Origin: a virus | IMG/VR virus record: IMGVR_UViG_3300033146_004399 | Location: 1 to 64,000 of that record | Reading direction: 5' to 3' (one strand) | DNA length: 64,000 nucleotides | Shown here: positions 2-25,851 of the stretch, piece after piece | Layout of the letters: each line of letters opens with the position of its first letter | Position numbering within the stretch: the stretch's first letter is position 1 | Notes under the pieces: generated by a model | Told to the model about the DNA's origin: nothing | What the model saw: only the letters and a program-made list of their open reading frames with translations | Database searches by the model: none | Position numbers and translations under genes: made by a program

Positions 2-133
2 ACTTGTTCAAATGGCTGCTCAACTAATTGTTCTTTAGGCTGTGGACAATCATGCCAAACAAGTTGTAAAGCAACATGTCTTAATGGATGTGAAAATTCA
101 TGTACTGCTTCGTGTGTAAATACTAATAGTTAA
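2..133 (+). CDS. 3' end of a CXXX-repeat (Cys every 4th residue) peptide/protein, putative radical SAM modification target; 5'-truncated by window edge
   Basis: Manual translation of frame 2: TCSNGCSTNCSLGCGQSCQTSCKATCLNGCENSCTASCVNTNS*, with 10 Cys at exact 4-residue spacing and TAA at 131-133. Not in the ORF track. Lies next to a CXXX-type maturase operon. Confidence 0.9.
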   Translation, partial: TCSNGCSTNCSLGCGQSCQTSCKATCLNGCENSCTASCVNTNS

Positions 134-165
134 AAAAAATCCTCTCTTTTTAGAGAGGATTTTTT
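132..165. terminator. Bidirectional intrinsic terminator
   Basis: Inverted repeat AAAAAATCCTCTCT-TTTT-AGAGAGGATTTTTT with A/T tracts on both sides, between convergent genes (stop at 133 on +, stop at 169 on -). Confidence 0.85.
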
Positions 166-168
166 AAA

Positions 169-426
169 TTACAACAGTTGAATTTTTTTGTTATCAAAAT
201 CAACATTCCAACTATTAGTAGGCGTTGTTTGAACGTTTAATCTTTTTTCAGTTTTAGAAAACCATTCATCATATTCTTTACGTGCTGTGATCAATTTATC
301 AACAATAGATTCAGCTATATTTTTGCTGTGATCATCTTTCGCGAGATTATTTAATGCAGCTAAACGTGTATTTAACTCATTAATCTCTTCAATTTCTTTG
401 TCAGTTAAATCAAATTCTTTAATCAT
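169..426 (-). CDS. CXXX-repeat peptide modification system small protein (TIGR04116-like)
   Basis: 85 aa with pattern LTDKEIEEINEL..R..AL.NL...Y.EW...W.VDF...I.L, matching my recollection of that family. In an operon with the CXXX-type rSAM. Confidence 0.65.
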   Translation of the reverse strand: MIKEFDLTDKEIEEINELNTRLAALNNLAKDDHSKNIAESIVDKLITARKEYDEWFSKTEKRLNVQTTPTNSWNVDFDNKKIQLL

Positions 427-430
427 AATA

Positions 431-706
431 TTACTCCTTTTTCGTTATATATATTTTTTTTTTAAAATCAACATAATTGCTTGGTGAAGAAACTACATTA
501 AATTTTTTATTTAAATTTTCAATCTCTTTATCAAAAGCCATTTTTGCTTCTACATAGTCATCAATATAAATATTTTCTATATTATCTATTGTATGAAGTA
601 TGCTTAAAAGTTCATATTTATAATATGTTGCTTTTAATATTTCTGTTTCTTTTTCAGTTAATTTAAATATTGAATTAAGTTCTAATGGTTTAAGTTGTAA
701 ATCCAA
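431..706 (-). CDS. Small protein, probable paralog of 169-426
   Basis: 91 aa; shares LTEKE.E.L and the C-terminal YVDFKKKIYI pattern with the neighbouring ORF; TTG start preceded by GGAGG. Confidence 0.5.
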   Translation of the reverse strand: MDLQLKPLELNSIFKLTEKETEILKATYYKYELLSILHTIDNIENIYIDDYVEAKMAFDKEIENLNKKFNVVSSPSNYVDFKKKIYITKKE

Positions 707-1662
707 TTTTGATTATCCTCCGCTAATTGTAAATAATTAATATAATAATTTTTTATTTTATTAACAAGACACATTTCATTATGAAGTGTAAAATATTCAG
801 TTTCAGCATCAAATTCGTCATTTAATTTATCGAGTATTTGAATCTCATCTAGTGTGATATTGTTTTGTATTTTATTAAATATATGTTTCTGGAATACTGA
901 AATAAAAGTTGTTTTTTTACATTCTGTAAATGCGGGTACTTTATATTCTGTTGTTTCGTTAAAATTAAAATAAATATTTCTATCACAGTAAAAAGTTTCA
1001 CAATTATGGCAAACTGTGTGTGGTTTTGATAAATGAATATATTTTTCATTAAAATTAAAATCTTCAATTTTAACGAAATGTGAAGATTTAGTCCAATATG
1101 ATATAGGATGTCTGTAGACATTTAATTTTGGTGATATGAATACTGAATTTTCTCCAAATGTTTCAAATTTTTCTTTATTAAAAAAACTTGTTAATTGTTT
1201 TATATGTTTATATTTTTTTTCATTAATATTTTTTATAATAAAATCTGCTAATATTTCAAATTGATCAGAAAGTATGTTTTTATCAAAATAATTTTTTATT
1301 TTAAAATCTATAAAACCAGCAGTATTATTATATAAATAAATCATTGATTTTAAAAAATTATTTTCGTCATCTACAATTAAAATAACATTATTAAAAGTAT
1401 TATTGTTAAAATCATTATATTGTGAAGTTTTTAAAATAGTAATATCAGCATTATAATTGTTTGATATCCAAGTATATTTATCAAAAAGTTTTTTTTCTGA
1501 TATATAAAAAATATTAAATTTTTCATTATTTTTTTTTAATATTTCTGACAATTTATCCATATCAGCGTTTATATTATCTTTTATATTATAATTAACGTCA
1601 TTATAATATACTAAATTTTCTGAATCTTCTATTTGAAAATAGAGATTAAATTCTTTATACAT
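682..1662 (-). CDS. CXXX-repeat peptide maturase-like accessory protein (TIGR04119-like, degenerate rSAM/SPASM)
   Basis: No CxxxCxxC. The C-terminal VCHNCETFYCDRNIYFNFNETTEYKVPAFTEC resembles the CxxC...C...N..T.E...P...C tail of this family. Translationally coupled to the upstream rSAM. Confidence 0.6.
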   Translation of the reverse strand: MYKEFNLYFQIEDSENLVYYNDVNYNIKDNINADMDKLSEILKKNNEKFNIFYISEKKLFDKYTWISNNYNADITILKTSQYNDFNNNTFNNVILIVDDENNFLKSMIYLYNNTAGFIDFKIKNYFDKNILSDQFEILADFIIKNINEKKYKHIKQLTSFFNKEKFETFGENSVFISPKLNVYRHPISYWTKSSHFVKIEDFNFNEKYIHLSKPHTVCHNCETFYCDRNIYFNFNETTEYKVPAFTECKKTTFISVFQKHIFNKIQNNITLDEIQILDKLNDEFDAETEYFTLHNEMCLVNKIKNYYINYLQLAEDNQNWIYNLNH

Positions 1663-2924
1663 TAAGTAAGTTCCTTATTTATTTTATTAACAAGTTCTCG
1701 ATTAATTTCTCTTTTTAGTTTAACTGCATATTTATATTGTAATTTTTGAAATTCACAATGATGTGTCGTTCGATAATAAACAGATTTAGTTTCTTCCCAC
1801 GACCCGCCATAACACATATGGCAAGATGATAATAAATCACAACTTAAACATTCATAATTTGAATTGTCTAAAGCATTTATAGAATGTAACGCTCTTAAAG
1901 GTCCTTCCACAAAATGATGTTTATTGATATTATAAGGTGAAGGTTCATTTAAAGAGTATGGTGACAACCTAAAACATGGATATATTTGTCCATCTACATC
2001 AATGGATCTCATAACCGCAGCACCGCAGTATGGTTTATTAGTAAAAGCATTTTGAATATTAATCTTTTTAGAATATAAATTAGAAGAATTTTGCTTATCA
2101 CCTAATACAATTGAATTTGTTTTATATTGAGGTATATGACGATCTCCTACCACAGAAACATATTTATTTTGTTCCCATAGTTTATATTTAATAATATAAT
2201 CTGTTAATAATATTAATTGTTCTTCATATATTTCAAGCGATATTTGCTTTTCTTTTTCAGAGCCCCAAACATCTTCAAATACAACATTCATATTTACTGT
2301 ATTTAAATTTAATTCATTCCATAAATATTTTGTTGATTCAAATATATATTTTAAAGTATCTGGCCCAATTGTAACTTTAGTTCCATAAATATTAAATTTT
2401 TTTTGATATTTACGGACATTACTTACAATTTTGTCCCAACTACCAGATCCGTCTGCTTTAACACGGTATAGATCATGTTGTTCTTTTATACCATCTACAG
2501 TCACTGATACAGACACTTTTCCAATTTTATTAATTTTTTCTACAATAGGTATTTTTTTCTCTAAAAGTAAACCATTAGTTCCTAAAGAGATTACCCATTT
2601 ATCATAGAAGCGAGGATATTTATATAATAATTTAAGAGATTCTTCTATAAGTTTATTTGTTCTTTTTATATTTACCCATGGTTCTGGATAAAATTCCAAT
2701 ATTATTCCGTTTTTAGCTCTATAAGAATGATTTGAGTTATTATGATAATAATCTAATAATTCATCTAATGAATTTAACACTTTATTTATATCATAATCAT
2801 TATCAGGACTTTTGTGCAAGTAACAATAAGAACACCTTAATGAACAATCTCTTGAAGTTATAACAGAAATTGATGTATAATTATTCAAATTACTAATTTC
2901 ATCTACATATTTTTTAAATTCCAT
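1662..2924 (-). CDS. Radical SAM/SPASM peptide maturase, CXXX-repeat target family (TIGR04115-like)
   Basis: CSLRCSYC motif; SVTVDGIKEQHDLYRV..DGSGSWDKI; SPASM CGAAVMRSIDVDGQIYPCFRL...CLSCDLLSSCHMC...YYRTTHHC. Confidence 0.85.
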   Translation of the reverse strand: MEFKKYVDEISNLNNYTSISVITSRDCSLRCSYCYLHKSPDNDYDINKVLNSLDELLDYYHNNSNHSYRAKNGIILEFYPEPWVNIKRTNKLIEESLKLLYKYPRFYDKWVISLGTNGLLLEKKIPIVEKINKIGKVSVSVTVDGIKEQHDLYRVKADGSGSWDKIVSNVRKYQKKFNIYGTKVTIGPDTLKYIFESTKYLWNELNLNTVNMNVVFEDVWGSEKEKQISLEIYEEQLILLTDYIIKYKLWEQNKYVSVVGDRHIPQYKTNSIVLGDKQNSSNLYSKKINIQNAFTNKPYCGAAVMRSIDVDGQIYPCFRLSPYSLNEPSPYNINKHHFVEGPLRALHSINALDNSNYECLSCDLLSSCHMCYGGSWEETKSVYYRTTHHCEFQKLQYKYAVKLKREINRELVNKINKELT

Positions 2925-2985
2925 ATATTTAATTATGCTTTAATTTTGGATATTTAATCAAATATGTTATAAAAAAGGAAATAAT

Positions 2986-3371
2986 ATGAAAATTATGTAT
3001 GTTTTATTATTATTGAAATTATAAATAGAGATAGTTTTGCTGTAGAAATTGATTTGTTAAGAAGTACTATCGATGGCTGGTGTGAAAAAGGTATATATGT
3101 TGAAACTCCTCAGTATAAATTTAATTATGTTGATTTAAATAGAAATTGATCAATAAAAAATTTAATTACAGATATTCATTACGGCGATAATAGCATAAAA
3201 CCTAGCACCGAAGAGTCTGCATCATTTTCAGAACCTGAAACAAAAACTATGTATTCATTTATTTTAAAATTAAAACATCAATATTTAGATTTAATTATAA
3301 TAATAAGTTATTATAGTTATACTCTTAACCATGATTCTAATTGGTATGATATAATCAGTTTATATTTATAA
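2986..3371 (+). pseudogene. Zinc carboxypeptidase (M14 family) remnant
   Basis: Frame reads YVDLNRN*(TGA 3147-3149)S...HYG...SASFSEPETKTMYSFI, the M14 DLNRNW and FSEPET motifs. The ATG at 2986 (after AAGGA) is out of frame with the motifs. Confidence 0.7.
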
Positions 3372-4130
3372 CAATGGTAACTGTATTGCAGTAGATAAAA
3401 TCTTTAAAAATAGCTGCAATATGTTGTAACACAAATAATTACAAATTAGTAGAAAAATGGACCAAATATGAAATAAATGATGAATTTATAAATTAAACAG
3501 GAGAGTAAAATACAACAGCTATAGATGTAGAACCTCTTAATAATAAAAATATATATTTTTCATTTGAAGAAACAAATAATTATATATTAAATTTTGATGC
3601 TATTCAAACATTACGCCAACAGTAAACATAATTTATTATATTGTAATAAAAAGTGTTCTTATTTGAATTTAATTATAAATTCAACACCTTTATTTTTCTC
3701 ACTTATACATTCTATCACACCGCAAGATTTCTCATATATAAGTGTATAAACTATATTTAAGCCTAAACCAGTGAATCCTCTTCCTCTCTTAGTTGTATAG
3801 AATGGTTCATATATTTTACTTATATCTTCTATACCTATACCGTTATCTTTGTAGATTAAACACCAATTATCTCCACATTTATCAAAACTAATGTTTATTA
3901 AACCTTTTTCCACCCCTTCGAACCTATGATCAATCGAATTGGTAACAAAGTTTGTTAACACCTGTGCAAGAGCTGAAGGGAATGTCTCAATTTCAACGTC
4001 TAATATATCCAACTCATATGTATGCTTCGTCATTTTAAACCCTGGATAAAGAGAGTGCATTATTGAACTTATATACTCTTTAACATTTATAACTCTTTTG
4101 TTTTCTGTTGCTTGATCAATAGATATATCC

Positions 4131-4547
<417 letters not shown>

Positions 4548-4582: not shown

Positions 4583-5545
4583 TTATTTATGAGGAAAACT
4601 ATAATTTTTAATATATTGAGGTATATTATATTCAATACCTAAATCGTCTTCATATAATATTTTATAAGTTAGATTATGCTCAGCGCAGTATTTTCTAGCA
4701 GCTTCTGCTTTAGCTTCTTTTTTAGTTTTATTTAAATAAAACACATTGTATGAATTTACTTCAATCAAATTTTTATTATTTATTAAAAAATCCGGTAAAT
4801 ATGTATGTTTTTCACCATTCACTTCATATGGAATACACGGATAATCTGTTTTATATTCGTTAACAGTATCATCACCTTCTAATTGTTCCATATATTTTAG
4901 TTCTAATTTTGATCTATAATGAATATATTTATTGTTTTTAATACTCCAATATTTACCAATAAATTTTCCCGTGGTCTTTCTTGTTCCGTCCGCAAAAGCT
5001 TTTCTATGCACCGCAGATATTTTTCGTTTCGTTTCTTCAGATAATGGAATACCTCGATGGCCTGCTGCAGATTTTTCTACTTGCTCTGGTGGAAGTTTTC
5101 GCCCAGTTAAAGCCTTCTTGACAGCCTCTTTTTGTTTAACAGTTTTATTTCTTTTAATAGCATTTTCAGACGCCTTCTTTCTAAATTCTTCTGTTTGTGA
5201 AGGGTGAGTACCATCTTTGGCACGTTGCCTTGTTATTTCAGCCATTTTTTTTCTTGCTTCCGGATCGTTAGCCCATCTAGCTTTACCACTTTCAGACAAT
5301 TTTAATTTAGTTTCTTTAGACGCCTTCTTACCCTTATTAGCAACAGCTGATTTTTCTGCTCTCCGTTTCTTTAATACTTCAGATGTAATTTCTGCGCCAT
5401 ACTTCTTCATATATTCACGAGGTTTAATTTCAGGATGTTTGAAACGTATATGATTCTGAATAGTTGTAGGATGAGTATACCCGCAGATTTGACATATAAC
5501 ATCTTTCTCAAATTTAATAGAACAAATTACTTTTTTATTAGTCAT
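4583..5545 (-). CDS. Putative homing endonuclease: zinc finger + NUMOD3-like repeats + PD-(D/E)XK (TnsA-like) nuclease
   Basis: CQICG...HIRFKH; SKETKLKLSE and LSEETKRKISA repeats; YRSKLE...IPY...HTYLPDFLI...LIEV. Confidence 0.75.
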   Translation of the reverse strand: MTNKKVICSIKFEKDVICQICGYTHPTTIQNHIRFKHPEIKPREYMKKYGAEITSEVLKKRRAEKSAVANKGKKASKETKLKLSESGKARWANDPEARKKMAEITRQRAKDGTHPSQTEEFRKKASENAIKRNKTVKQKEAVKKALTGRKLPPEQVEKSAAGHRGIPLSEETKRKISAVHRKAFADGTRKTTGKFIGKYWSIKNNKYIHYRSKLELKYMEQLEGDDTVNEYKTDYPCIPYEVNGEKHTYLPDFLINNKNLIEVNSYNVFYLNKTKKEAKAEAARKYCAEHNLTYKILYEDDLGIEYNIPQYIKNYSFPHK

Positions 5546-5652: not shown

Positions 5653-6426
5653 TCAAAATTTCCAACTCCAATTGAAGACCACGTCAATTGATTCATCTTT
5701 AACTATACCTCTGAAAGTTCTATAAGAAAGCATCATACCAGTTCTCATGTTAACATTATCACCAACTTTAAGAGCAGCATCACAAAAAAGACCAGCTTCA
5801 GATATTACTTTTCCATTATATGGGTAAGAAGCATCACCTCCTGGAAGTTTAACCGAATAAGTTACTTTATTAATAGTATTAGACGAAGCTTCTGAAAGAA
5901 CAATATGCTGTGTAGTTATTGTTCTGTCTATAACAACAAAAGGATTTGTACTATCAAAACCCACAAGTTCAGTTGCATCTGTCTGAACATCTTCTTTAGG
6001 ATTTAATGAAGCATCCAAACCACCTGTACCAAATCTCATTTTTGTAGGGAAGAAAGGATATATAGGAGTCCCGTTTACAATATTAGCATCTAACGAATCA
6101 CCAGTCAAAACATCTCTTTTCTGTACTAAACCATTAAGAGAATTACTATAAGTCCATGGGCTAGAAGTTATGAGATTAGTGTTACTGCCGTCTTCGTAAT
6201 GATTTATTGTATAAGGTGTTCCCCCAACATCATTTACTTCTTCACCGTGATTTCCCCAAGTACAAAATGGTCTTCCAGCACTAAGGAAAGCTATAGAATG
6301 TTTAGCCCAATCCTGCAATTGATTATGGTCATCATCGTGTCTTATTATTTCTCCAGTATGGTGATCACTGACAATAACCTCTAGTGAACCATATGGTAAT
6401 TTAAAATTTTCTGTAAATCCAAACAT
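5653..6426 (-). CDS. Phage baseplate/tail-fibre attachment structural protein
   Basis: MRFGTGG...ISEAGLF...YRTF..IVKD...FNWSWKF pattern; last gene of the baseplate run. Confidence 0.6.
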   Translation of the reverse strand: MFGFTENFKLPYGSLEVIVSDHHTGEIIRHDDDHNQLQDWAKHSIAFLSAGRPFCTWGNHGEEVNDVGGTPYTINHYEDGSNTNLITSSPWTYSNSLNGLVQKRDVLTGDSLDANIVNGTPIYPFFPTKMRFGTGGLDASLNPKEDVQTDATELVGFDSTNPFVVIDRTITTQHIVLSEASSNTINKVTYSVKLPGGDASYPYNGKVISEAGLFCDAALKVGDNVNMRTGMMLSYRTFRGIVKDESIDVVFNWSWKF

Positions 6427-6450: not shown

Positions 6451-9400
6451 TTATACATCTATTGTAAATTGCATAATATCTTGGTAGTCAGACCAATCTT
6501 TATTATGTTTTTTGTATTTGTAAGCCCAATAATATATATTATTAGGTAAGTTTAACCTCACTTCAGTTGATGTAGTTTTTAAATTAAAAACTACATCAGT
6601 AAAATTAACGTCTCGTGCAACAATAATTTCATATTTTTCGACATTTAATCCGATTTTCCATCTAATACTAAAATTTATAGATGTTAACACTCCAGTTGAT
6701 TCTTCGTATACAGGTTCTATATATTGATAATTTAAATCATTTAATATTTGCCCATCATATGGGAAAAGAATACTATTTATTTCAAATCTATATATAGGAG
6801 ACCATTGACCCCAATCAAATTTGTTAGCAGTTATTGCTAATAAACTAATAAATCTGTCTTCTTGTTGAACGGTTAAATTCACTCTTTTTGTATATACAGT
6901 TCCATCAAACGTGAAATATTCAGTTTTAAAATTTGTGTCTCCCGGCTCCAACCATCTGTCTTCGGCTAAAAAAGTAGCTTCATATATTAAGAGTTCATTT
7001 ATAGATTGTTCAATTCCATTAATTTTTTCTATAGACCACTCATTAACATTAAGATTGTTTTTAGTTCTTATTCGCCAATAATAATTATCATTATCTAGTA
7101 TAACATTTTGAATATTAGTAGTTGTATTGTTCAAGAATTCATTTAATAAAATATTACTAAAATTGATATCTTTAGACACTTGAATCCAATAACCTTCTTG
7201 CGCTAATATTTCTTCCCATATAAAATTTATATTATTAACTCCTAATACCATACTAGGTGCAGGAACTACATTTATTGGATATGATGGGTAGGGACGATAA
7301 GAATAATTGAGCCATTTATTATATCTATCGTCTATAGCATGAAACCATGTTGCCGGTTCATTATGATATATATAATATTTTTCACTATCTTCTATTTTAT
7401 ATAAATCACCATCTGTAGCTGTAAAGAGAATTAGTTCTGAATATGTAGAAAATATATGATCTTCGGCAACAACCGGTGGATTAATATAAGTTACTAATTC
7501 CCATATTGGCGCAGGGTCTTTATATATATAATATAAATTTGTCTCTTCTACATAAGCTATTGTGCCTACTTCTTCTATAGTTGGAAGGTCTATATAATTA
7601 ATGTAGATATCATCATAATCTAAATCGTTAACATTTTTAATTACTATATCTAAATTATCAAAGTTTAAATATTTTGCCCCATTGTGATAAACATTTGTTA
7701 TGTGGGATGGATGTCCTGGTTGTCTAATATAGACGCCGTCATGTTTAAGAAAAGCTCCAACAGTATCATCTCCACCTAAATTCATATTATTTGTTATTGA
7801 AACAAACATAGAATCACTTTGCATATATGACATTTTATTATTACCATCTAGTGTATAGAAATAATCTTCAACATTTTCATAAGGGAAAAATTCTCCATTT
7901 TCCGTATTACCAAATGTTTTTGTAATTTCAGCCTCTAAATACTCATCGACATTTTCCATTATATTAACATTTTCAATCCATGGTAGAAGATTAATATTAA
8001 CCCATGTAAATAAATAAGTTGGAGATAGAAAGCGTATATACTTTTTAATCGTCTCATTATCCGTTGACGAAAGATTAACTTTATCAAAGAATGGATTGAG
8101 TTGATATTCTATTAAATTAGTTTTAAAATATTTCCATGGATTAGAATGATATTTTTGTTCCAGATTGTTATATGATTCTACACCAAGCATATAATTTACA
8201 GGATTTGAACAACCATTAGTAAGAAGAGTATCGTATTCTAGTGACCAATCATTTAGATTTCTAATTTGTTCTAAATTTGGAGCTGGACTATTATAATCGG
8301 TTTCATATATAGGGTTTAAAGTTGTTAAATAATATTCTACATTTTCGACATCTATACTTGGAAAACCTTCTGGATTTTTAACGTCTCTATTGAAATAAAA
8401 TTCTTTGAGATTAACGTTAAAACCAAGGAATTTGAAAAAGAATGAGAAGGAATAATTTGTACCTTTAATTTTATAAATTTCAATTATATTTTTTAATAAT
8501 TCTCTAAATGATACATTTGAGAGAGCAAAATCTTCTTTTTCATACCCAAGCATTTGACCTAAGTATTCTAACAACTCATCCGGTGTTTCATCAATATCAT
8601 ATACGTCTTGAAGACGAATCAATTTATCTTCAAGTTGATCCAATTTTCTGCCTATACTTTCCATGAAAAGTTTTATCTTTGGCTCTTCTTTCATTAAATC
8701 TCTATCATATTCAGGAATGAATTGCCAAATATTTTTTTCATAAAAATTGTCAGTAACACCATATCTGTAAAGATATACAGTCATATTTAAAAGTTCTAAA
8801 AGATTAGTATGAAGTGCAGATTGATATTGATTCCATGGCGGAGACATGCCCATATCCACAAGACCATAAAGAGAAGCAATTATATCTATTAAATCTTCGC
8901 CTAGTACTTCATATATATCACCTAAAATAGGATTTGGCATGAGGTCAGATATTCGTATAACAGTGCCAACGGCCGTTGTACTCTCTACTTTCTCCCAAAC
9001 AACATTACCATCGTTATCTTCTACAGCCATAAAATATCCACTTTCATCTTCCCAAACTTTATATCCATGTTGCTGGTAAAGAGAATCTAAATATACAAGT
9101 CTAGATTTGTCTCTAGATTCTGGATCTTCTGCCCAAAAACCGTCCCATATATAATATTTTCCTGGGTATGGGTTGGACACAAAATAAATATCACCTTGAT
9201 TTAAATTTATTGTAGGAAGATTTGCATATTCTGTAACTTCACCTTTGACGGGATTATCTTGGTCTGGTTCAAATGATGTAGGAGTTTTAGATTTATAAAT
9301 AGTTTGCAAATCATATTCTACTATTTTATCATGATTGAGGATAAAAAATTCAGCAACTCTTTTAATACCATCGATATCAATACCAAATTCTTCATACATC

Positions 9401-9480
9401 TGAGAGAGAGCAGGATGTTTTTTGAAAAGTTGATATACACGTTGTGTTGTATCATAATATATTCTTGCCACTATTCCCAC
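6451..9480 (-). CDS. Baseplate wedge protein (P2 gpI / T4 gp7-like) with added repeat domains
   Basis: YDIDETPDELLEYLGQMLGY...FRELLKNIIEIYKIKGT motif; follows the gp6-like gene; GTG start. Confidence 0.75.
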   Translation of the reverse strand: MGIVARIYYDTTQRVYQLFKKHPALSQMYEEFGIDIDGIKRVAEFFILNHDKIVEYDLQTIYKSKTPTSFEPDQDNPVKGEVTEYANLPTINLNQGDIYFVSNPYPGKYYIWDGFWAEDPESRDKSRLVYLDSLYQQHGYKVWEDESGYFMAVEDNDGNVVWEKVESTTAVGTVIRISDLMPNPILGDIYEVLGEDLIDIIASLYGLVDMGMSPPWNQYQSALHTNLLELLNMTVYLYRYGVTDNFYEKNIWQFIPEYDRDLMKEEPKIKLFMESIGRKLDQLEDKLIRLQDVYDIDETPDELLEYLGQMLGYEKEDFALSNVSFRELLKNIIEIYKIKGTNYSFSFFFKFLGFNVNLKEFYFNRDVKNPEGFPSIDVENVEYYLTTLNPIYETDYNSPAPNLEQIRNLNDWSLEYDTLLTNGCSNPVNYMLGVESYNNLEQKYHSNPWKYFKTNLIEYQLNPFFDKVNLSSTDNETIKKYIRFLSPTYLFTWVNINLLPWIENVNIMENVDEYLEAEITKTFGNTENGEFFPYENVEDYFYTLDGNNKMSYMQSDSMFVSITNNMNLGGDDTVGAFLKHDGVYIRQPGHPSHITNVYHNGAKYLNFDNLDIVIKNVNDLDYDDIYINYIDLPTIEEVGTIAYVEETNLYYIYKDPAPIWELVTYINPPVVAEDHIFSTYSELILFTATDGDLYKIEDSEKYYIYHNEPATWFHAIDDRYNKWLNYSYRPYPSYPINVVPAPSMVLGVNNINFIWEEILAQEGYWIQVSKDINFSNILLNEFLNNTTTNIQNVILDNDNYYWRIRTKNNLNVNEWSIEKINGIEQSINELLIYEATFLAEDRWLEPGDTNFKTEYFTFDGTVYTKRVNLTVQQEDRFISLLAITANKFDWGQWSPIYRFEINSILFPYDGQILNDLNYQYIEPVYEESTGVLTSINFSIRWKIGLNVEKYEIIVARDVNFTDVVFNLKTTSTEVRLNLPNNIYYWAYKYKKHNKDWSDYQDIMQFTIDV

Positions 9481-9720
9481 CCTTTTATTTTACTTAAATA
9501 AGGAGCTATAGCTCCCAATGCTATTTGTGTGTTTTCTAAGTTAAATATATGATCTATTATTATATTCTTCTTTTTAAAATATCCATTATCAATTAACATT
9601 TTTAACACCGCGTTTCATACAATTATTAAAATTTTTATGATTTATTACTTTATCATAATAATAATCAAGAGAGCCAAATATGAGGCCATTTTCAATATAT
9701 AAAAATATATATTTCATCAT
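9471..9720 (-). pseudogene. Small hypothetical gene broken by a 1-nt frameshift
   Basis: ATGA-coupled to the gp6-like stop; MKYIFLYIENG...CMKRGVK continues as MLIDNGYF...KIKGWE* after a shift in the T5 run at 9599-9603. Confidence 0.4.
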
Positions 9721-11972
9721 GCTTCTACAAATTTCAATATGATACCATGTCGTTTGTTTTCAAGTATTTTAACACCATCATATTCATCGTTAGCTAAAAC
9801 AATTATTTCATTATATTTTGGTATTATTTTATGTTCAACTTTATTTGCATTTACACTATTTAATTGTTCCAATGTTAATTCATTTTCAACATATTTTCTA
9901 TATATAGCATAATCTCTACCTAAATAATCTATTTCAACAAATCTAACACCACTTTGCCCCATAGTCAATGCTATTATTTCTGCTTTATTTATAGGATAAT
10001 TATAAGTGTTTGTTTCAATATTAAAATTTGCACGTAAATAATCTGGCATTGTTGATTCTACTTTTCTTTTAAAATTTTTATAACAATATATTGTTGCTAC
10101 TAAATCAAATGTACTATATACAGTTTCTTTTATATGATTATCTACACATAACATTTTTTTATCTTTAATAGAATCTAAAATAGTTTTTTCTTCACTTTCT
10201 CCTTCTACATCCCAATAATCTGCATATGTTACCAACACAGTATCTCCTTCTAATATATTACCAGATGGTATAAGTGAAATCGTATTAATCATATAATTTA
10301 TAGAATAATCTACACCCTCCCGATAAGTGATAGCCATAAATTTATCAGTTAATATTATAGGTACTGCTGGATATAGCTCTATTAATGCATTATCACTCAA
10401 TATTATTTTACCATTTGAGAAAGTTCGAAAACATTTGCTTTCAAATATTGTATTATTACTTTTTATATAAAATATTCTCAATGTTCTCGTATCAGCTGGA
10501 ATGGTCCCATTATCGATCGTTTGAATTCTTGTTATTTCACTTTTAGTATAATCCAAAGTAAAATCAACATCTGCAATAAATGTAGAAGTACAAACTCCAT
10601 TTATACCTTCCGCTGTATTTTCTAAAAGAGTTACGTGTTTATTATAGTATTGATATTTTCTTAATTTAAATAAATATGCTGTTTGTTGCACTGTCGAAAA
10701 CTCAAAATCTTCGTATTCATACCACCCATTATCAATATATGATTTAGATAATTGAAGATTTACATTATAATTTATTGGATTCATATCCTCTAAACTTTCT
10801 CTCTCTGGAGTTATATAAATCCATGTGTCTAATGGTGGAAGAAAGTACCCATAATCTTGATATAATTCGGGTGGTTCGTTTTCTTTGGCAATTATTTTAG
10901 CATGTTTTACTAGAGAATTTTCCTCAAGATGAGTTATATAATCCTCATTTGTAACAGTTTTATTGGCTGTCCTGAGACTAAGTGGAGCGGTAAGTTTCGC
11001 CTCTTCTATACTTTCAGAATCAACACCTCCAAAAGCCGCATATGGATTTGTAAAAATTGCAGTTATTCTTTCGTTATTTATAGTTAATGTCTTAGTTGTG
11101 TTAATATCACCTTTAACACTATTAGTTGTTGCACCACCACCTATACGATATATTACTTGTAATACCTCACCTTTCTCAGGAATTGTAACTATATTATTAT
11201 GACCAAAAATTACTTCAGCTTTATTTTCAGCATCTGTTTTAATCATAAAAGGTATCTGTTTTAAATTATTTGGAAGATTTTGCTGTTGAGCTTCTGGAGA
11301 AATAAATGATTCTACTTCTAAACATTCTCTACTTGTTGTTGACGAATATACACGAATAGAATTTTGAATAACTGGGCTGCTTTGAAGAGTAAAACGTTCA
11401 TTGCTCACTCCATCCATTACTATGCCTGTTTCTGTTCGTGTGCTTCCTTGATAAAAGGGGACATTATATATTTCACGAATTTTGTTATTTACGTCGCCCG
11501 TATCAACAGTATATATATAGTTATAATTTGGTTTGCCATCGTCAGCTATTTCAAGACATTCAAAGTTGATATTGGTTCCAGCAGTATTTTTGCCGGTTAT
11601 TGCAAAAAGAGCTGGAAGGTTAAACGGAGTAACCCATTTAGCTAATTTTAAATGTATTTTAACACTTGAAGCCGTAGGAAGTTTAGGCTTATAATTTATA
11701 AGTTGAAGAATATTTATTTGACTTTGTTTTTGAGTTGCTGTACCTATAAACATTTCTCGAGCAATCCAATCTAGCTTTGAAGTGAATTTCTCCATTATGA
11801 ATGCATTCATTTCAAGAAGCATTCTGCCTGCATCAGTTTCTAGAAACGAATCCCAATTCTCTAAATATTCAGGATGTTCCAATATTATACGCTGTATATC
11901 ATCTATAATAGACTCAAAATCAAGAGACGTATAATCGAAATTAGGCAACTGAATTAATGTGTTGCTCTTCAT
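9717..11972 (-). CDS. Baseplate wedge protein (T4 gp6 / baseplate J-like)
   Basis: FDYTSLDFESII...DAGRMLLE...REMFIGTATQKQS..NILQLINYKP; YRIGGG; AFGGVDSESIEE...RTANKTVT.EDY. Confidence 0.85.
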   Translation of the reverse strand: MKSNTLIQLPNFDYTSLDFESIIDDIQRIILEHPEYLENWDSFLETDAGRMLLEMNAFIMEKFTSKLDWIAREMFIGTATQKQSQINILQLINYKPKLPTASSVKIHLKLAKWVTPFNLPALFAITGKNTAGTNINFECLEIADDGKPNYNYIYTVDTGDVNNKIREIYNVPFYQGSTRTETGIVMDGVSNERFTLQSSPVIQNSIRVYSSTTSRECLEVESFISPEAQQQNLPNNLKQIPFMIKTDAENKAEVIFGHNNIVTIPEKGEVLQVIYRIGGGATTNSVKGDINTTKTLTINNERITAIFTNPYAAFGGVDSESIEEAKLTAPLSLRTANKTVTNEDYITHLEENSLVKHAKIIAKENEPPELYQDYGYFLPPLDTWIYITPERESLEDMNPINYNVNLQLSKSYIDNGWYEYEDFEFSTVQQTAYLFKLRKYQYYNKHVTLLENTAEGINGVCTSTFIADVDFTLDYTKSEITRIQTIDNGTIPADTRTLRIFYIKSNNTIFESKCFRTFSNGKIILSDNALIELYPAVPIILTDKFMAITYREGVDYSINYMINTISLIPSGNILEGDTVLVTYADYWDVEGESEEKTILDSIKDKKMLCVDNHIKETVYSTFDLVATIYCYKNFKRKVESTMPDYLRANFNIETNTYNYPINKAEIIALTMGQSGVRFVEIDYLGRDYAIYRKYVENELTLEQLNSVNANKVEHKIIPKYNEIIVLANDEYDGVKILENKRHGIILKFVEA

Positions 11973-12018: not shown

Positions 12019-12378
12019 TTATTCTGTTTCTATATCAAATTCTAACTTAAGTAATTTTTCATCCTCTATGAGATCACCATTTTCAATAAAACCAAGTGTT
12101 AACATTAAAGAATTGTTTAAAATTTCAGTATCAACTCTGGTTAATATTAGTTGAGGAAGGTATATATTTATTTGTTCTTTGATATCAGACTTGATAGCAC
12201 TTGTAGTTTCATCGTCCATGAGTTCAAACAAACGGCTGCGTAAACCAACGCCAAAAAAAGGTAATCCAAGCCTTTCTCCTGGATTAGTCATAACAACCCT
12301 AGTTATTGCTTCAGAATGAAGAGGCGCATTTTGTTTAATTGTAAAAAATTCATTTCCATAATAAGAAATTCCCCTCAT
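12019..12378 (-). CDS. Baseplate wedge subunit, gp25/gpW-like
   Basis: VVMTNPGER...PFFGVGLRSRLFE...IKEQINIYLP; directly upstream of the gp6-like gene. Confidence 0.85.
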   Translation of the reverse strand: MRGISYYGNEFFTIKQNAPLHSEAITRVVMTNPGERLGLPFFGVGLRSRLFELMDDETTSAIKSDIKEQINIYLPQLILTRVDTEILNNSLMLTLGFIENGDLIEDEKLLKLEFDIETE

Positions 12379-12490: not shown

Positions 12491-13093
12491 TTACTTTTTA
12501 CCGTATAGTTGTTGTATATCTGAAGACAGTTGAGAATTATTAAATATTGTATCCATAACTTTAGTAGATATGGTGCTATAATCCATACCTGAAAGAATAG
12601 CTTCTTTAACTTGATGTTTATCTCTGAATGAAGCACCCACTAGATTGATATTGCTATTTGCAAGAGTTTTCAATTTATATGCATCATCAAACAATCCACT
12701 ATATTCATTTTTGCCTCTATATACCATAGTATAATTCGCACCTATTTCTATAGCCTGGTTTATTTGAACAATATCATATACAGTTGTAGCAGCTACTTTA
12801 AATCCGTTACTTTTTAAGTCTTGTATAACTTTATAAAATTTCGGATGCATTGTTATTTTAAATACTATGTCATCTGAAATATCTAAATCATATATTTTAC
12901 TAATTTCGTGTGCTTCTTTGCTATCAGTTATTTGTACGAATTTAGTAAATTTATAACCTTTTACCATATCTAAAAAATCATAATTTGTCATTTTTGCAGC
13001 TTCTAATAAAACAGGATTTGATGTAACTCCACTTATAATACTATGATATTTATCTATATCTTCTTTCTTGACACTGTCTAAAAAATATTTCAT
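12491..13093 (-). CDS. Transaldolase / fructose-6-phosphate aldolase family protein
   Basis: FLDS...GVTSNP...VFKI...VAATTVY...Q...A...GANY...VGASFR...AILSG.DYSTI. Confidence 0.8.
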   Translation of the reverse strand: MKYFLDSVKKEDIDKYHSIISGVTSNPVLLEAAKMTNYDFLDMVKGYKFTKFVQITDSKEAHEISKIYDLDISDDIVFKITMHPKFYKVIQDLKSNGFKVAATTVYDIVQINQAIEIGANYTMVYRGKNEYSGLFDDAYKLKTLANSNINLVGASFRDKHQVKEAILSGMDYSTISTKVMDTIFNNSQLSSDIQQLYGKK

Positions 13094-14002
13094 TTATAAC
13101 TCCTTGTAAGTTGTTGATAATCTACCAACTCTTTCTTTTTCTGTAAATTTACTATTATAATAAATTATGCTTCCTGTGTTTTTTAGTTGGTCACAATTAT
13201 TACATATTAAACTATCTACTACTTTTCCATCTTTGTGTAAGGCTACTATTTTGTTATACATATCACTATTATATATTTCTTTTAATGTTTGAGTCTTGAA
13301 ATCTCCTATTTCTAATTCCCCATTATAATCAAAACAACACATATTTATAGTTCCATCTACCTGTATTTGAAAAGGTCCATTAAAAGGTCTTCCACATGTT
13401 TGTTTAACTTTCTCACCTTCCCTATACGATCCCCAACTTGCCCAATTATGTGGTTTCCATACCTCTAATAAATCAATTTTTCCATCTAATAACTTACGTA
13501 ATAGTTTTATCTCTTCTTCAACATTATATATTACATCTGCAGTAATAATTAATTTTGTCTTAGTTTTTTGAGTGCTTATTTTATTAATGTTGCTCAACAC
13601 TTTGTCCCATTGATCGGCAGGACATTGCATTGTTTTCATATATATAGTTTTATTAGCAGAATGAAAACTTATACGTATAGTGTCAATTTCTAATTCTATT
13701 AATCTATTAATAATATCATCTGTTAACAATGAACCATTAGTTAATATTTCAATAGTATATCCTAACTTAGAAGCTAATTCAATTTTTTCCATTATACCTT
13801 TATCAACAAAAACTTCACCCATACCAGAAAAAGTTAATTGTGTAACTTGCGGTGCTTCTTTTTTTATTTTATTTATTAAAAATTCAAACAATTTATATGA
13901 CATTATTTTATTTTCTCTAATTAATTCATCATGAGGGCAAAATACACAAGCATTATTACATATAGTGCTAATTTCCATCCTGGCTTCATTTGTTGTTGTC
14001 AT
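13094..14002 (-). CDS. Radical SAM protein with SPASM/twitch domain
   Basis: CNNACVFC; FSGMGE; CGRPF...QVDGTINMCCFD...IGD...ICNNC. Confidence 0.9.
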   Translation of the reverse strand: MTTTNEARMEISTICNNACVFCPHDELIRENKIMSYKLFEFLINKIKKEAPQVTQLTFSGMGEVFVDKGIMEKIELASKLGYTIEILTNGSLLTDDIINRLIELEIDTIRISFHSANKTIYMKTMQCPADQWDKVLSNINKISTQKTKTKLIITADVIYNVEEEIKLLRKLLDGKIDLLEVWKPHNWASWGSYREGEKVKQTCGRPFNGPFQIQVDGTINMCCFDYNGELEIGDFKTQTLKEIYNSDMYNKIVALHKDGKVVDSLICNNCDQLKNTGSIIYYNSKFTEKERVGRLSTTYKEL

Positions 14003-14729
14003 TTAATTTATCCTCTAATTCTTTTATTTGATTTTGAGTATCTACTCCATAATATAAATGTTTTATTTCTAATAATTGTATTTTATATCCATTATCTAAA
14101 AACATATTTTGTTCCAGTCCTTCTATGGAGGCTAATTCGCTAACGGCCCACAAATTATTATGTAATATAGCATTTGAAAATATAAATATTCCAATATGTT
14201 TTTTATAAAAATCTAAATTTTTTATAATACCGCCATTTTTTAACGTCGGTATTACAGCTCTAGAAAAATACAATGCTTGTCCATTTTTATTACAAACTAT
14301 TTTGCACGATTGCGTTCTTTGCAAATGTTCTGCAGAATAAAACCTAGAAAAAAAAGTAAATATATCACTCTTATTATGTTGAAAAGAGCTCAATTGAAAA
14401 TTTACTTGTGTAGGGTCTACTAACGGCTCATCTGCTGGTATAGACATATAATAATTGTATCCTGGATATTTGTTATATACATATTTTATTCTCTCACTAC
14501 CGCAGCAGACTTTTTTTTCCATATAAAATATTTCAATATTAAGTTTTTTGTTTGATATATAATCTATCAACTCATTGGAATCAGTAGCTATAATTAATTT
14601 ATCAACATTAAATTGTTTTGCATTTTTTATTACTCTTTCTATTATTGATTTTCCATTTAATTCAGCTAATAATTTATTTGGAAATCTTTCACTTTTTAGC
14701 CTAGCGGGGATAACTCCTAGTATACTCAT
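13986..14729 (-). CDS. kdsB: CMP-KDO synthetase-like cytidylyltransferase (divergent)
   Basis: VIPARLKSERFPNK.L; ADEP; KIV....ALYFSRAVIP; HIGI; IEGLEQ; GVDT. Confidence 0.8.
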   Translation of the reverse strand: MSILGVIPARLKSERFPNKLLAELNGKSIIERVIKNAKQFNVDKLIIATDSNELIDYISNKKLNIEIFYMEKKVCCGSERIKYVYNKYPGYNYYMSIPADEPLVDPTQVNFQLSSFQHNKSDIFTFFSRFYSAEHLQRTQSCKIVCNKNGQALYFSRAVIPTLKNGGIIKNLDFYKKHIGIFIFSNAILHNNLWAVSELASIEGLEQNMFLDNGYKIQLLEIKHLYYGVDTQNQIKELEDKLNDNNK

Positions 14730-15688
14730 TTTAACAACCTTAATATTTTTTTCATTACTTTATTAGAACCAATACTTACCCGCAACACACCATCCATATA
14801 TGGGTGATTAAATTTTATACGTGTCAATATTTTATTTTCATATAGTTTATTATAATAATAAATATGCTTATTATCATTAAATCTTAAAATTATAAAATTA
14901 GTATATGTTATTTCATAATTATCCGGAAATTTTTTCATAAATATATTATGCCATTTTATTGCATGTTTTTTGTTTTTATTCGCTATGCTGGAATTAATAG
15001 CTTTGACACCTTCTATAACGGCTAAATCGTTGACTTCATCCATAGGACGATGTGTTCGTAATTCATTTATTATTTTTTTGTTTGCGTTAATACAACCTAC
15101 TCTTAAACCAGCTAGTCCATGACTTTTAGACAAAGAGTCTACTATAATAACATCTTCTGGTATAGTAGATTTAATAGTCATATATGAATAGTAGGTAAGA
15201 TCTAAAAGCACCTTTATTTTATATTTTTTTGCTCTTGAGACTATAGCTTTAAATAATGTATCTCCCATAAATATTCCGGTAGGATTATCAGGATATGCTA
15301 TATATATCAAAGATATTTTACTTTTATACTTTTCAATTGTTTTAAGCCAACTATATTCTATATTTTGACTATCATAACTTATAGTAATAACTTTAGCTTC
15401 ATTCATTTGCTCAAATACTTCAACCATACCAAATGTAGGGTCTGGCCGTAGAACAATTGAATTTGGAATTACGTATCTATTATATATAATTCTTAGACCT
15501 TCTTCTGCGCCTCTTGTAATAAGTATATTATCTATATTAGTATTCCACTTTTTGGCGAAAGCTTCATAAAGAGGGTAAGTATAGGGATATTTTTTATATT
15601 TTCCATATGCTGCTTGATTATTAGATAAATTAATAAAATTTTTTTCTTCCCATCTTTTAATTTTTGGCCTTTTAATATTATAATTCAT
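14726..15688 (-). CDS. PLP-dependent aminotransferase/decarboxylase, class I/II (HisC/CobD-like)
   Basis: ITRGAEEG; PTFG; PDNPTG; LLDLTY; SLSKSHGLAGLRVG (PLP-Lys); LRVSIG. Confidence 0.85.
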   Translation of the reverse strand: MNYNIKRPKIKRWEEKNFINLSNNQAAYGKYKKYPYTYPLYEAFAKKWNTNIDNILITRGAEEGLRIIYNRYVIPNSIVLRPDPTFGMVEVFEQMNEAKVITISYDSQNIEYSWLKTIEKYKSKISLIYIAYPDNPTGIFMGDTLFKAIVSRAKKYKIKVLLDLTYYSYMTIKSTIPEDVIIVDSLSKSHGLAGLRVGCINANKKIINELRTHRPMDEVNDLAVIEGVKAINSSIANKNKKHAIKWHNIFMKKFPDNYEITYTNFIILRFNDNKHIYYYNKLYENKILTRIKFNHPYMDGVLRVSIGSNKVMKKILRLLK

Positions 15689-16448
15689 TAATAAATTCCC
15701 ACAGCCTATAAAATTTATTAATCATTTTTTTTAATTCATTATTATATAACATTACTTCGCTATCACACAACGCTTCCTTACAGTTAGGATGCGTTTCTAA
15801 AAATAAACCATCTGCCCCGGCGGCTAAAGCGGTTACACCCAGTGTCTTTATTCTTTTTGTTTGGTTACCAGACCATCCCTTATTGGGATGCGTAATATCC
15901 CATAAAACTGGCATGTTATTTTCTTTCATAATTTCTATGTGCCGTGGGTCCATAAACACTTTATCATATCCTAACATAGTTCCTCTGTCAGTAAGTATGA
16001 TATCTTTAGCTCCAAATTCCAAAACATTATTTACTATATTCTTCATTTCCCATGGACTAACAAATTGAGGTTTTTTTATATGTAATTGCTTATCATATAC
16101 TTTACAATGATAAGCTGATGCTTTTAGTAAAGATTGTTGTTTGGCAAGATAGGCTGGTATCTGTATAACATCTACAAACTTTAATTCCTCCATTAGAAGA
16201 TGCTCAACATTGTGAACATCAGTACATATTTTTACATTATATTCATTTTTAATTTCTTGTAATAGAGATAAGGCCTCCTTCTCACATAAACCAGAAAATC
16301 CAGTGGAAAGAGTTCTATTATCTTTTTTAAACGATGATTTAAAAGTAAAATCTATATCTTTCCCTTTGACAGCTTCCAAAATAGATTCAATACTTTTTTT
16401 TAATTCATCCTTACTTTCTACTACACATGGTCCTGCTATCAATTTCAT
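15678..16448 (-). CDS. kdsA: KDO-8-phosphate synthase-like enzyme (metal-dependent type, divergent)
   Basis: IAGPCVVES; FKSSFKKDNRT; TDVH; QIPAYL; KKPQFVSP; DRG; DITH; GLFLETHP...ALCD. Confidence 0.85.
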   Translation of the reverse strand: MKLIAGPCVVESKDELKKSIESILEAVKGKDIDFTFKSSFKKDNRTLSTGFSGLCEKEALSLLQEIKNEYNVKICTDVHNVEHLLMEELKFVDVIQIPAYLAKQQSLLKASAYHCKVYDKQLHIKKPQFVSPWEMKNIVNNVLEFGAKDIILTDRGTMLGYDKVFMDPRHIEIMKENNMPVLWDITHPNKGWSGNQTKRIKTLGVTALAAGADGLFLETHPNCKEALCDSEVMLYNNELKKMINKFYRLWEFINEL

Positions 16449-17292
16449 TTTCGTCTCCTTCTGTTACTGCTAACTCGCAACTTTTACATATAAAATCTTC
16501 TGAAGATTTTATTTTACCATTAATTTTACTCATAATGGTTTTATATAATTTTGAATTATATATATCTTCCAACGTTTGATGTTTAATATTCCCTAAAACT
16601 ATAGATTTTGTATAATCCATGCAACAAAGAATTAACGAACCATCTGCTAACAAATTAAACCATTCGTATGGTATACCTTTTGTACAACCTTTAATTTTAT
16701 TATGAATAACTTTATCGATATGTTTTAATATTCCTCCACGAGTATAATTATAATTTTTTGATATAAAATATCGTTTTAAAAATTCTGCAGGTGTTTCATT
16801 TCTTTCATAATAACGATTTTTTATAACATTAAAATTTTTGTTATTTATTGAATAGTCATAAAGACTATTATATGCTTCAACCATTTTATTCCAATCAAAT
16901 TCGGTTATATTTGTATTATGAACAATGTTATACGTATCAGCGTTATATCCATCCAACGATACCATAATTTGATTTATTTTACTATTTTTAATATTATCAA
17001 TATTTTTATGTAATAATAGTCCATTAGTTACAAACCCGATATTAGAATTGGGTATAATATTTTTAATATATTCAACTCTATTAAATAAATATGGGTCTAA
17101 AAGTGGTTCATTTTCTAAATGTAAAAATATGTTTATATTATTAGCAGCGACTTCTTTCAATTCTTCAATAAATTTATTAAATACATATGATCTTATTGTA
17201 TCGTTATTATGATACACTAATCTATGTGGACATGAAATGCATTTTGCATTACAACTATCTATTGTTTGTATTTGAACATTGTTAATTTTCAT
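16411..17292 (-). CDS. Radical SAM protein with SPASM/twitch domain
   Basis: CNAKCISC; NEPLLDP; C...YEWFNLLADGSLILCCMDY...LGNI...ICKSC. Confidence 0.9.
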   Translation of the reverse strand: MKINNVQIQTIDSCNAKCISCPHRLVYHNNDTIRSYVFNKFIEELKEVAANNINIFLHLENEPLLDPYLFNRVEYIKNIIPNSNIGFVTNGLLLHKNIDNIKNSKINQIMVSLDGYNADTYNIVHNTNITEFDWNKMVEAYNSLYDYSINNKNFNVIKNRYYERNETPAEFLKRYFISKNYNYTRGGILKHIDKVIHNKIKGCTKGIPYEWFNLLADGSLILCCMDYTKSIVLGNIKHQTLEDIYNSKLYKTIMSKINGKIKSSEDFICKSCELAVTEGDENEIDSRTMCSRK

Positions 17293-18238
17293 TTTTTATT
17301 AAAAATTCCTCTCTATTAACCATTTTAGTATAATATTCAATTTGAGTATTTATAGTACTATATATATTTACATTATTCCATGATCCTATTCCAAGGGTAG
17401 AAATATTCGGTTTATTTTTTGTTATTTTTGTATTAAATGTATATTTAATAATATCATCATGGTTTAGTTCGTTTAGCGTTAATTGTATACCATTTTTTTT
17501 ATTCATCCAATCTAAAATATTAATAACATTATCTTGTTTTTTATAGTTACTTTCTTTAATAAATTTATTTATAACATTAACAAAATTTTCATTTATATTA
17601 CTATTACCTTTCCATTTATAATCATAAGCTGCAACTATTTCATCTACGTTAAATTTAGAAATTATATCTAAATCATTATAAAATAATTTTGAGCTAGAAC
17701 CTTCTAATACTAATAAATCAACAACAACAAACATCTTCCTAGAGTGTGCATATTCAATTAATTTTTTGAGCCTTTTTATATCTATTGAAATTCTATTATG
17801 AGCATCTAATATATTTTTATTAAATGTTTGCACTCCAATAATAATAGTATTTATATTATAATATTTAAATATATCAATTTGTTCAAAAGTTAATAACGAA
17901 GGATGTACCTCTATAGTTTTATGATTATCAATTTTATCAAAACTTAATAAAGAAAAAATATTATTCATATCACTAATTTTCATAATATTTGGTGTACCAC
18001 CACCAATCCAATAATATTGATTTTTAAACAAGCTAATTATAGAAAAATATTTTTTTATTAATTCAGGTAAATATTTTTTATAGTAAAAATCATAATCTTG
18101 TTTATTATATTTATATCCGCCATATGCACAAAAACTACATACTTTTTCACAAAATGGATTATGTAAATATACTTGAAAAATATCTTTATTTGTAATATTA
18201 TTATTCCAAATATTTTTAAGTTTATCATAATCAATCAT
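17282..18238 (-). CDS. HemN-like radical SAM protein
   Basis: YLHNPFCEKVCSFC; IGGGTP; TIEVHP; IGVQTFN. Confidence 0.8.
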   Translation of the reverse strand: MIDYDKLKNIWNNNITNKDIFQVYLHNPFCEKVCSFCAYGGYKYNKQDYDFYYKKYLPELIKKYFSIISLFKNQYYWIGGGTPNIMKISDMNNIFSLLSFDKIDNHKTIEVHPSLLTFEQIDIFKYYNINTIIIGVQTFNKNILDAHNRISIDIKRLKKLIEYAHSRKMFVVVDLLVLEGSSSKLFYNDLDIISKFNVDEIVAAYDYKWKGNSNINENFVNVINKFIKESNYKKQDNVINILDWMNKKNGIQLTLNELNHDDIIKYTFNTKITKNKPNISTLGIGSWNNVNIYSTINTQIEYYTKMVNREEFLIKNEN

Positions 18239-19079: not shown

Positions 19080-19127
19080 TATTTTTATATTATATAAATA
19101 ATTATGCTTTAAGGCATAATTATTTAT

Positions 19128-20670: not shown

Positions 20671-20671
20671 T

Positions 20672-21655: not shown

Positions 21656-21672
21656 ATTTTCTCCGTTATATA

Positions 21673-23824: not shown

Positions 23825-23844
23825 TTTTTCTCCTATAAAATATA

Positions 23845-24768: not shown

Positions 24769-24778
24769 GTTAATTCTC

Positions 24779-25849: not shown

Positions 25850-25851
25850 TT

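Follow-up and report, generated by a model that had tools for sequence, protein, structure and literature searches.

Can a phage carry a complete radical S-adenosylmethionine (SAM) system for the modification of proteins with a Cys at every fourth residue and, if so, which part of the phage would such a system serve? This question is raised by the left end of IMG/VR virus record IMGVR_UViG_3300033146_004399, a linear record of 179,366 bp with 30% G+C and an estimated completeness of 63%. We analyzed the first 64 kb of this record (64,000 nucleotides, here referred to as the window; window base 1 is record base 1), in which the end of a Cys-repeat gene and a four-gene maturase operon occupy the first 2,924 bases. 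A preliminary description of this DNA, made without database searches, had recognized the gene set of the bacterial CXXX-repeat modification system, which to our knowledge is defined by computation only. Our searches support this recognition in that TIGR04115, TIGR04119 and TIGR04116 are each the best or the only NCBIfam match of an operon protein. As judged from sequence comparisons, the locus is a phage-borne, divergent variant of a bacterial system that is known but has had no chemical study. Our literature searches found nothing on CXXX-repeat radical SAM chemistry or on such a system in phages.

Results

The maturase operon is tight, lies on the minus strand and consists of four genes, all with intact open reading frames (ORFs). 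The first gene (1662..2924, minus strand) encodes a TIGR04115-like radical SAM/SPASM maturase of 420 amino acids (aa). TIGR04115 is the best of 46 NCBIfam families for this protein (E 1.2e-53; 182.8 bits, cut-off 350), PapB is second-best (E 2.4e-33; 115.8 bits, below the cut-off of 340), and TIGR04463, the CrpC family, is also matched (E 3.3e-13, 49 bits). In an alignment of 18 sequences the CX3CX2C motif (C27/C31/C34) is nearly invariant and the seven SPASM Cys (C300, C317, C359, C362, C368, C371 and C390) are invariant; the enzyme, in other words, has both the radical SAM motif and a seven-Cys SPASM domain. In a profile search against the PDB the best match is CteB (E 6.5e-35), with an alignment that spans CteB residues 86-449. 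CteB bears an N-terminal RRE (peptide-recognition) domain. The 420-aa enzyme is predicted to be without such a domain, given that only 26 residues precede its cluster motif and that the CteB alignment begins at residue 86.

The second gene (682..1662, minus strand), the start of which overlaps the upstream stop codon as TAATG, encodes a TIGR04119-like protein of 326 aa. In the preliminary description the operon was read as a radical SAM/SPASM enzyme, a degenerate SPASM-tail protein and two small paralogs; the enzyme and the paralogs hold, but the supposed tail appears to be a whole paralog with the radical SAM fold. The sole NCBIfam match of the 326-aa protein is TIGR04119 (E 1.1e-14; 54.3 bits, short of the cut-off of 150), and in the ESM Atlas it scores 0.96 to clusters named 'CXXX repeat peptide maturase'. 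Its family aligns to residues 126-416 of the maturase family (hhalign; probability 87.5%, E 3.6e-6), and its AlphaFold model, with a predicted local distance difference test score (pLDDT) of 76, has CteB 5WGG as best Foldseek match (E 1.6e-4, probability 1.00), followed by anSME, SuiB and SkfB. When the profile of the 326-aa family was searched against the PDB, the match obtained was no better than chance. The protein has no CX3CX2C motif and no Cys before residue 218; C218, C221, C226 and C248 are invariant (C-x2-C-x4-C ... C), a four-Cys pattern that we take to resemble the second auxiliary cluster site of the anSME structure. Because the hhalign alignment and the fold both match the enzyme and SAM-cluster Cys are absent, the protein is not only a SPASM tail; sequence and model indicate that it is a catalytically dead enzyme paralog with a radical SAM fold that has lost the SAM cluster.

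The last two genes encode a 91-aa protein (431..706, minus strand), with a TTG start behind the ribosome-binding site GGAGGA, and an 85-aa protein (169..426, minus strand) behind AAGGAG. The two proteins are 30% identical (BLASTP, E 5e-7) and are thus paralogs. For the 85-aa protein TIGR04116 is the sole NCBIfam match (E 5.7e-8; 32.8 bits, under the cut-off of 50), and the ESM Atlas places it with 'CXXX repeat peptide modification system protein' clusters (score 0.93, TM 0.87); the 91-aa protein has no NCBIfam match of its own. The family of the 85-aa protein comprises 37 representative clusters. The AlphaFold model of this protein (pLDDT 95.6) has the order strand, two long helices, two strands, in which the helices form a hairpin against a sheet of three strands. 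As a reference for the two small proteins we used the RRE (PqqD-like) fold, a winged helix in which a three-stranded sheet is followed by three helices.

For comparison of gene contexts we used six relatives from the same clade (L011-L016), a bacterial comparator (L017) and the Salmonella jumbo phage SPN3US (L018). The four genes occur in the same order in all six relatives, in each of which a counterpart of the 91-aa protein has the same position. Moreover, there are fusions of 668-732 aa in which a TIGR04115-type enzyme has a C-terminal domain matching the 326-aa family (E 1e-13 to 1e-25), and one protein of 178 aa (P0143) consists of two small-protein domains in tandem. The conserved locus and these fusions indicate that the four predicted proteins act as partners.

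The HMMs (hidden Markov models) of the TIGRFAM collection, proposed earlier as a check on the assignment, matched for TIGR04115, TIGR04119 and TIGR04116 and weakly for TIGR04114, but every score is below the NCBI cut-off. We therefore regard the proteins as a divergent branch and not as formal family members, and automatic annotation would leave the operon proteins as hypothetical. The close relatives of the enzyme are 44-67% identical to it and fall into about 39 clusters at 90% identity. In the phylogenetic tree 39 rows form a clade of their own, which a long stem (1.14 changes per column) separates from the rest of the TIGR04115-like proteins. Members of the enzyme family or of a partner family are found on contigs of up to 428-499 kb.

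The target gene is represented in the window by its 3' end (2..133, plus strand), 43 codons and a TAA in a frame that is open at its 5' side. We confirmed the earlier observation that these bases encode 10 Cys at i+4 and are missed by the ORF track; all nine of the nine spacings are exactly 4. Because window base 1 is record base 1, it is the contig end and not a stop codon that cuts the gene, and this cut explains why the gene is omitted from the ordinary ORF list. A six-frame scan of the whole record did not find a second period-4 Cys array, and exact-word scans of viral and metagenome contig collections with the first bases gave no match from which the upstream sequence of the target could be read. 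When the fragment is compared with the Cys-repeat proteins of the four closest relatives (L011-L014), it matches their C-termini with 54-67% identity and eight invariant Cys columns, and on account of this homology the 43-aa frame is not a chance frame. An off-frame artefact was also considered and was rejected based on the same homology and on the terminator behind the frame. In NCBIfam the fragment weakly matches TIGR04118, TIGR04114 and TIGR04117, the TIGR04114 repeat model giving 14.9 bits against a cut-off of 20. The locus, then, has beside its maturase genes a target with the Cys period of four by which CXXX-repeat systems are recognized. By comparison with the relatives, the full target protein would probably have 150-340 aa and some 30-60 Cys.

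What the targets of this clade look like is evident from the six relatives, in which Cys-repeat proteins of 152-680 aa with 20-110 Cys, mostly at spacing 4, adjoin the four-gene set. Directly upstream of the enzyme gene are Cys-repeat proteins of 152-340 aa with 32-64 Cys. Three relatives (L011, L013 and L014) also encode another target (319 aa), with an F5/8-type-C (discoidin-like) domain ahead of 20 repeats; in L015 one protein of 680 aa holds a discoidin domain and 110 Cys, and in L016 a different domain of 390 aa precedes the repeats. The F5/8-type-C (sugar-binding) domain is accordingly found on targets of four relatives, and the discoidin-type domains of three of these (L011, L014 and L015) match PHROG 21973, a 'tail protein' (E 1e-12 to 1e-18). 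The X positions of the repeats are mainly S, T, G, N and A, with D at about 4% and E at no more than 4% at each X position. With 152-680 aa, the targets are not the short leader-core peptides, accompanied by a protease or exporter, of classical RiPPs (peptides that are made by the ribosome and modified after translation).

Public gene calls are in the wrong frame for several of these targets and give Val/Leu-rich products (L011 5211-6008, L012 1570-1968 and L013 5200-5976), the true Cys-repeat frames being L011 5015-5983, L012 1503-1961 and L013 4962-5984. The L012 contig has a length of 7 kb, and its positions 1-1464 have 45% G+C compared to 27-33% in the rest and, to judge by eye, seem to encode a membrane protein; this left 1.5 kb may mean that the contig is chimeric or that it runs into host DNA.

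Between the target gene and the operon lies a hairpin (134..165) with a 14-bp stem and flanking A-run and T-run, which we assign as a bidirectional intrinsic terminator common to both transcription units. It was missed by a simple terminator scan, and its strength was revealed by the folding energy, which is -18.2 kcal/mol (z -5.2) on one strand and -17.3 kcal/mol (z -5.6) on the other; the same bases also show as a self-complementary match. Because the hairpin folds equally well on both strands, it can stop transcription from either side, and the 14-bp hairpin bears out the proposal that the target gene and the operon converge on a shared bidirectional terminator.

In the window the target and maturase genes are adjacent but convergent and do not form the single co-directional cluster of a CXXX-repeat system, whereas they are co-directional in L011-L017. 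In 6/6 relatives the substrate is upstream on the same strand, and the opposite-strand layout is found only in the window. In L011 and L013 the target, enzyme, 328/330-aa, 91/88-aa, 85-aa and M14 peptidase genes are on one strand throughout; in the window the target is on the plus strand, the four genes are on the minus strand and a remnant of the M14 gene is on the plus strand. This comparison of gene orders is consistent with the four-gene block having been inverted while its flanks, the target gene and the since-decayed M14 gene, kept their orientation.

The remnant (2997..3556, plus strand), which is outside the set of genes proposed to work together, was identified by tblastn to the M14 genes of L011-L013, to which it is 33-42% identical over two frames, and it marks the former right-hand flank of the cassette. 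The M14 pseudogene and the inversion explain the ORF-free stretch of about 730 bp upstream of the maturase operon (2925-3660). Recoding of stop codons in this stretch was considered as well and was rejected since the frame is broken in several ways that together point to a pseudogene: a TGA replaces the conserved W codon in the DLNRNW motif, two TAA and a frameshift are present, and about 85 N-terminal residues (the N-terminal third) are lost. Between the baseplate block and the rearranged cassette, a 320-aa protein (4583-5545, minus strand) has a TnsA-like / phage endonuclease I-like C-terminal domain and is possibly a mobile endonuclease close to the rearrangement.

A full set in a phage with the substrate on the opposite strand had been called unusual. 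A single-protein scan of IMG/VR gave no relative; a profile scan gave 235 more distant enzyme relatives, and at 78 of the best 80 loci, which we inspected, there is an adjacent Cys-repeat ORF (105-769 aa), with up to 160 Cys in one locus. Ten Cys-repeat proteins from other viral loci had no Pfam domain. Among the other viral loci examined, one (L019) matches both the 326-aa and the small-protein profiles and a few others match only the small-protein profile, and therefore the full four-gene set looks rarer. In GenBank, 71 phage records match the enzyme, and most of these are jumbo phages of Erwinia and Salmonella. A Cys-repeat protein paired with a maturase is consequently common in viral contigs and cultured jumbo phages, and in this respect the locus is not unusual; the relative rarity of the full set and the window-only layout are the parts of that statement that stand.

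Among the cultured phages, SPN3US (NC_027402.1, about 143.2-144.2 kb; L018 2085-3114) has three tandem CXXX-repeat ORFs of 130, 134 and 68 aa upstream of gp101-gp103, just before a TIGR04115-like enzyme and among virion and tail genes. In RefSeq this locus has only a wrong-frame ORF of 111 aa (gp100), and the other two target ORFs are unannotated. The first ORF corresponds over its full length to PHROG 6085 (unknown function; E 7.5e-41), and PHROG 1802 is radical SAM. The resemblance to the window has limits: the SPN3US enzyme is 26% identical, the targets have 68-134 aa, and the 326-aa and small-protein profiles are unmatched there. In the literature we found no relevant paper linking SPN3US, or cysteine-rich tail fiber proteins, with radical SAM enzymes.

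In the window and in three relatives the cassette has baseplate or tail genes in its neighbourhood. The window has a P2 gpI-like gene (6451-9480), a baseplate-wedge gene (9717-11972) and a gp25-like gene (12019-12378). A 257-aa protein (5653-6426) has a counterpart of 75% identity in L014, which is encoded two genes past the cassette and is followed there by a gpI-like gene, and in L016 the cassette is three genes upstream of gp25. In terms of position, the system lies at the far end of the baseplate block in the window, L014 and L016. The far end of the baseplate block is the usual place of tail-fibre genes. For most of the neighbouring genes searched in L011, L014 and L015, PHROG gave no match.

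Several other genes in this region deserve mention. Beside the baseplate genes, eight further radical SAM genes extend over 14 kb (13094-26760, minus strand; at about 13.5, 16.8, 17.7, 18.6, 21.4, 23.1, 25.3 and 26.3 kb), at least one of which has a SPASM domain, and in L016 three radical SAM genes lie directly upstream of the CXXX target. Between the gp25-like gene and the first of these radical SAM genes is a 200-aa transaldolase / fructose-6-phosphate-aldolase-like gene (12491-13093, minus strand; E 1e-17). On the other side of the baseplate block, at 3659-4547 (minus strand), a 167-aa HATPase_c ORF (histidine-kinase-type ATPase, E 1.5e-17) shares 32 bases with a 138-aa ORF, which has a run of 15 Asp and, by eye, resembles a response-regulator receiver; the two ORFs may be one gene split by a frameshift.

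Discussion

Combining the family assignments with the conserved gene order, the kinds of target that relatives encode and the location next to baseplate genes, we suggest, as the explanation that on balance is probably correct, that the locus encodes a divergent phage CXXX-repeat radical SAM maturation system and that its product is more likely a part of the tail or baseplate than a free peptide. With the bacterial CXXX-repeat system as defined in NCBIfam the phage system shares (i) the partner families, (ii) the Cys period of 4 with small residues in between and (iii), in the relatives, the order target, enzyme, TIGR04119-like and TIGR04116-like gene. It differs from the bacterial system in that the small protein is duplicated, in that the enzyme forms its own long-stem clade with all scores below the cut-offs, in that the targets are without a signal peptide and in several cases are fused to a domain like the PHROG 'tail protein' and, in the window, in the inversion of the four-gene block.

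The bacterial comparator illustrates the difference in the targets. L017 is a metagenome contig, the maturase of which is attributed by NCBI to a metagenome-assembled genome of Paludibacteraceae, and its TIGR04119 protein scores 212 bits. Unlike the phage targets, the L017 target has a twin-arginine-type signal and a lipobox-like Cys. In this contig the CXXX target is at 3205-3891, and a TatA-family gene is at 7425-7634 downstream of the cassette. The twin-arginine signal and the TatA gene suggest export of an already modified or folded product.

As for the chemistry, the three-cluster SPASM architecture, PapB and CteB as the nearest characterized relatives and the precedent of CrpC argue for a thioether, and by analogy we consider it rather more probable than otherwise that thioethers are formed on the Cys-repeat target. 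PapB (freyrasin) and CteB (PDB 5WGG/5WHY) are three-cluster radical SAM/SPASM enzymes and are, respectively, the second-best HMM match and the best PDB match of the phage enzyme; in contrast to them, the phage enzyme is without an RRE, is accompanied by a dead paralog and two small proteins, and has targets of hundreds of residues without the Cys-X3-Asp/Glu pattern. CrpC, a radical SAM/SPASM enzyme of Methanococcus voltae (TIGR04463), installs thioether (ranthionine) links on the 28.8-kDa Cys-rich protein CrpA, which has a 17-residue repeat with a C-X-X-Q/D motif, and CrpC has its own RRE (PMC13692751). The likeness to the phage system is a radical SAM/SPASM enzyme for which the substrate, in the phage case a proposed one, is no short peptide but a large Cys-rich protein with repeats; the differences are that CrpC is a distant relative, is archaeal and not viral, acts on another repeat and has an RRE.

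In the model that we propose, the 420-aa enzyme with three [4Fe-4S] clusters would cleave SAM and take a hydrogen from a carbon of a small residue neighbouring a Cys; this carbon would be joined to the Cys sulfur, giving a thioether. Repeated along the array, this reaction would produce a ladder of small thioether rings. The enzyme, which is predicted to be without a recognition domain, probably works in complex with the dead 326-aa paralog, which has kept one four-Cys site, and the pair of small helical paralogs probably holds or presents the long substrate. The product would most likely be a stiff piece of a tail or baseplate appendage that resists proteases, and not a free peptide. For the presence of the product in the virion, taken as a separate claim, we see a probability slightly short of even.

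Several observations weigh against this model. All HMM scores are under the NCBI curated cut-offs, we found no published chemistry for any TIGR04115-type enzyme, and the idea of a thioether rests on relatives at about 25-30% identity. Given that D and E are scarce at the X positions, the PapB logic of a Cys-X3-Asp/Glu acceptor does not apply. For the fold of the 85-aa protein, Foldseek and VIA-align comparisons to solved structures gave only generic helical hairpins (Z no higher than 7) and no match that was informative. The N-terminus, start codon and promoter of the target lie beyond the contig end, and the type of target that is fused to a tail-like domain is not in the record. Finally, the link to the virion consists of gene position and one domain resemblance.

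Alternatively, the Cys-repeat product could be a free, released RiPP-like peptide or protein, for instance an antimicrobial or a host-directed factor, and not part of the virion. The SPN3US-type targets have a length of 68-134 aa with a leader-like, Cys-free N-terminal part of about 50 aa, the M14 peptidase gene beside the cassette in L011-L013 could code for a processing protease, and the family names themselves define the CXXX system as one of peptide modification. However, the targets of the clade are 152-680 aa long, a fusion to a folded domain of the sugar-binding, 'tail protein'-like type is present in four of them, a transporter or immunity gene was not seen in the six contexts examined (L011-L016), and in the window M14 is a pseudogene while the four maturase genes are intact. 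We therefore consider a released product improbable.

In a further scenario, which we hold to be a shade less probable still, the Cys array mainly binds or stores metal or iron-sulfur, e.g. for the nine radical SAM enzymes of the phage, and the gene set does other work. The extreme Cys content, which reaches 110 in clade relatives and 160 in an IMG/VR locus, would suit such a store, eight further radical SAM proteins are encoded close by in the record, and the L017 target with its twin-arginine-type signal and adjacent TatA gene is reminiscent of cofactor-bearing exported proteins. The authors of the CrpA study also raise metal binding (PMC13692751). Nevertheless, in bacteria as well as in phages the arrays are closely linked to a SPASM maturase of their own, the nearest characterized relatives of the enzyme form thioethers and most viral loci with the pair showed no other radical SAM genes, although these were not counted systematically. 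A third reading, that the cassette is a decaying remnant with a possibly truncated target, draws on the inversion relative to 6/6 relatives, the M14 pseudogene and the nearby TnsA-like endonuclease gene, and is very improbable given that the four ORFs are intact and translationally coupled or preceded by ribosome-binding sites, that all cluster-ligand Cys are kept and that the well-conserved C-terminus of the target is followed by a strong terminator.

Returning to the model of a maturation system for a tail or baseplate part, the analyses describe a distinct phage clade with a complete enzyme set, in which the targets are full-size proteins, some of them fused to a sugar-binding, 'tail protein'-like domain. 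Gene callers often miss these targets or place them in the wrong frame, even in the RefSeq record of SPN3US, and therefore annotation-based proteomic searches would miss them. If the product is a cross-linked part of the virion, viruses would have a new way to harden or shape their particles, and the system would represent a new class of protein-level thioether modification. In its most specific and rather unlikely form, the proposal is that a family of huge phages employs its own radical SAM enzyme complex to staple a tail or baseplate appendage with dozens of thioethers, giving a 'cysteine ladder' rod with a sugar-binding head. If such a stapled appendage exists, it would be the first known case of a virion component that matures through radical chemistry, and would reveal the chemistry of the whole CXXX-repeat family.

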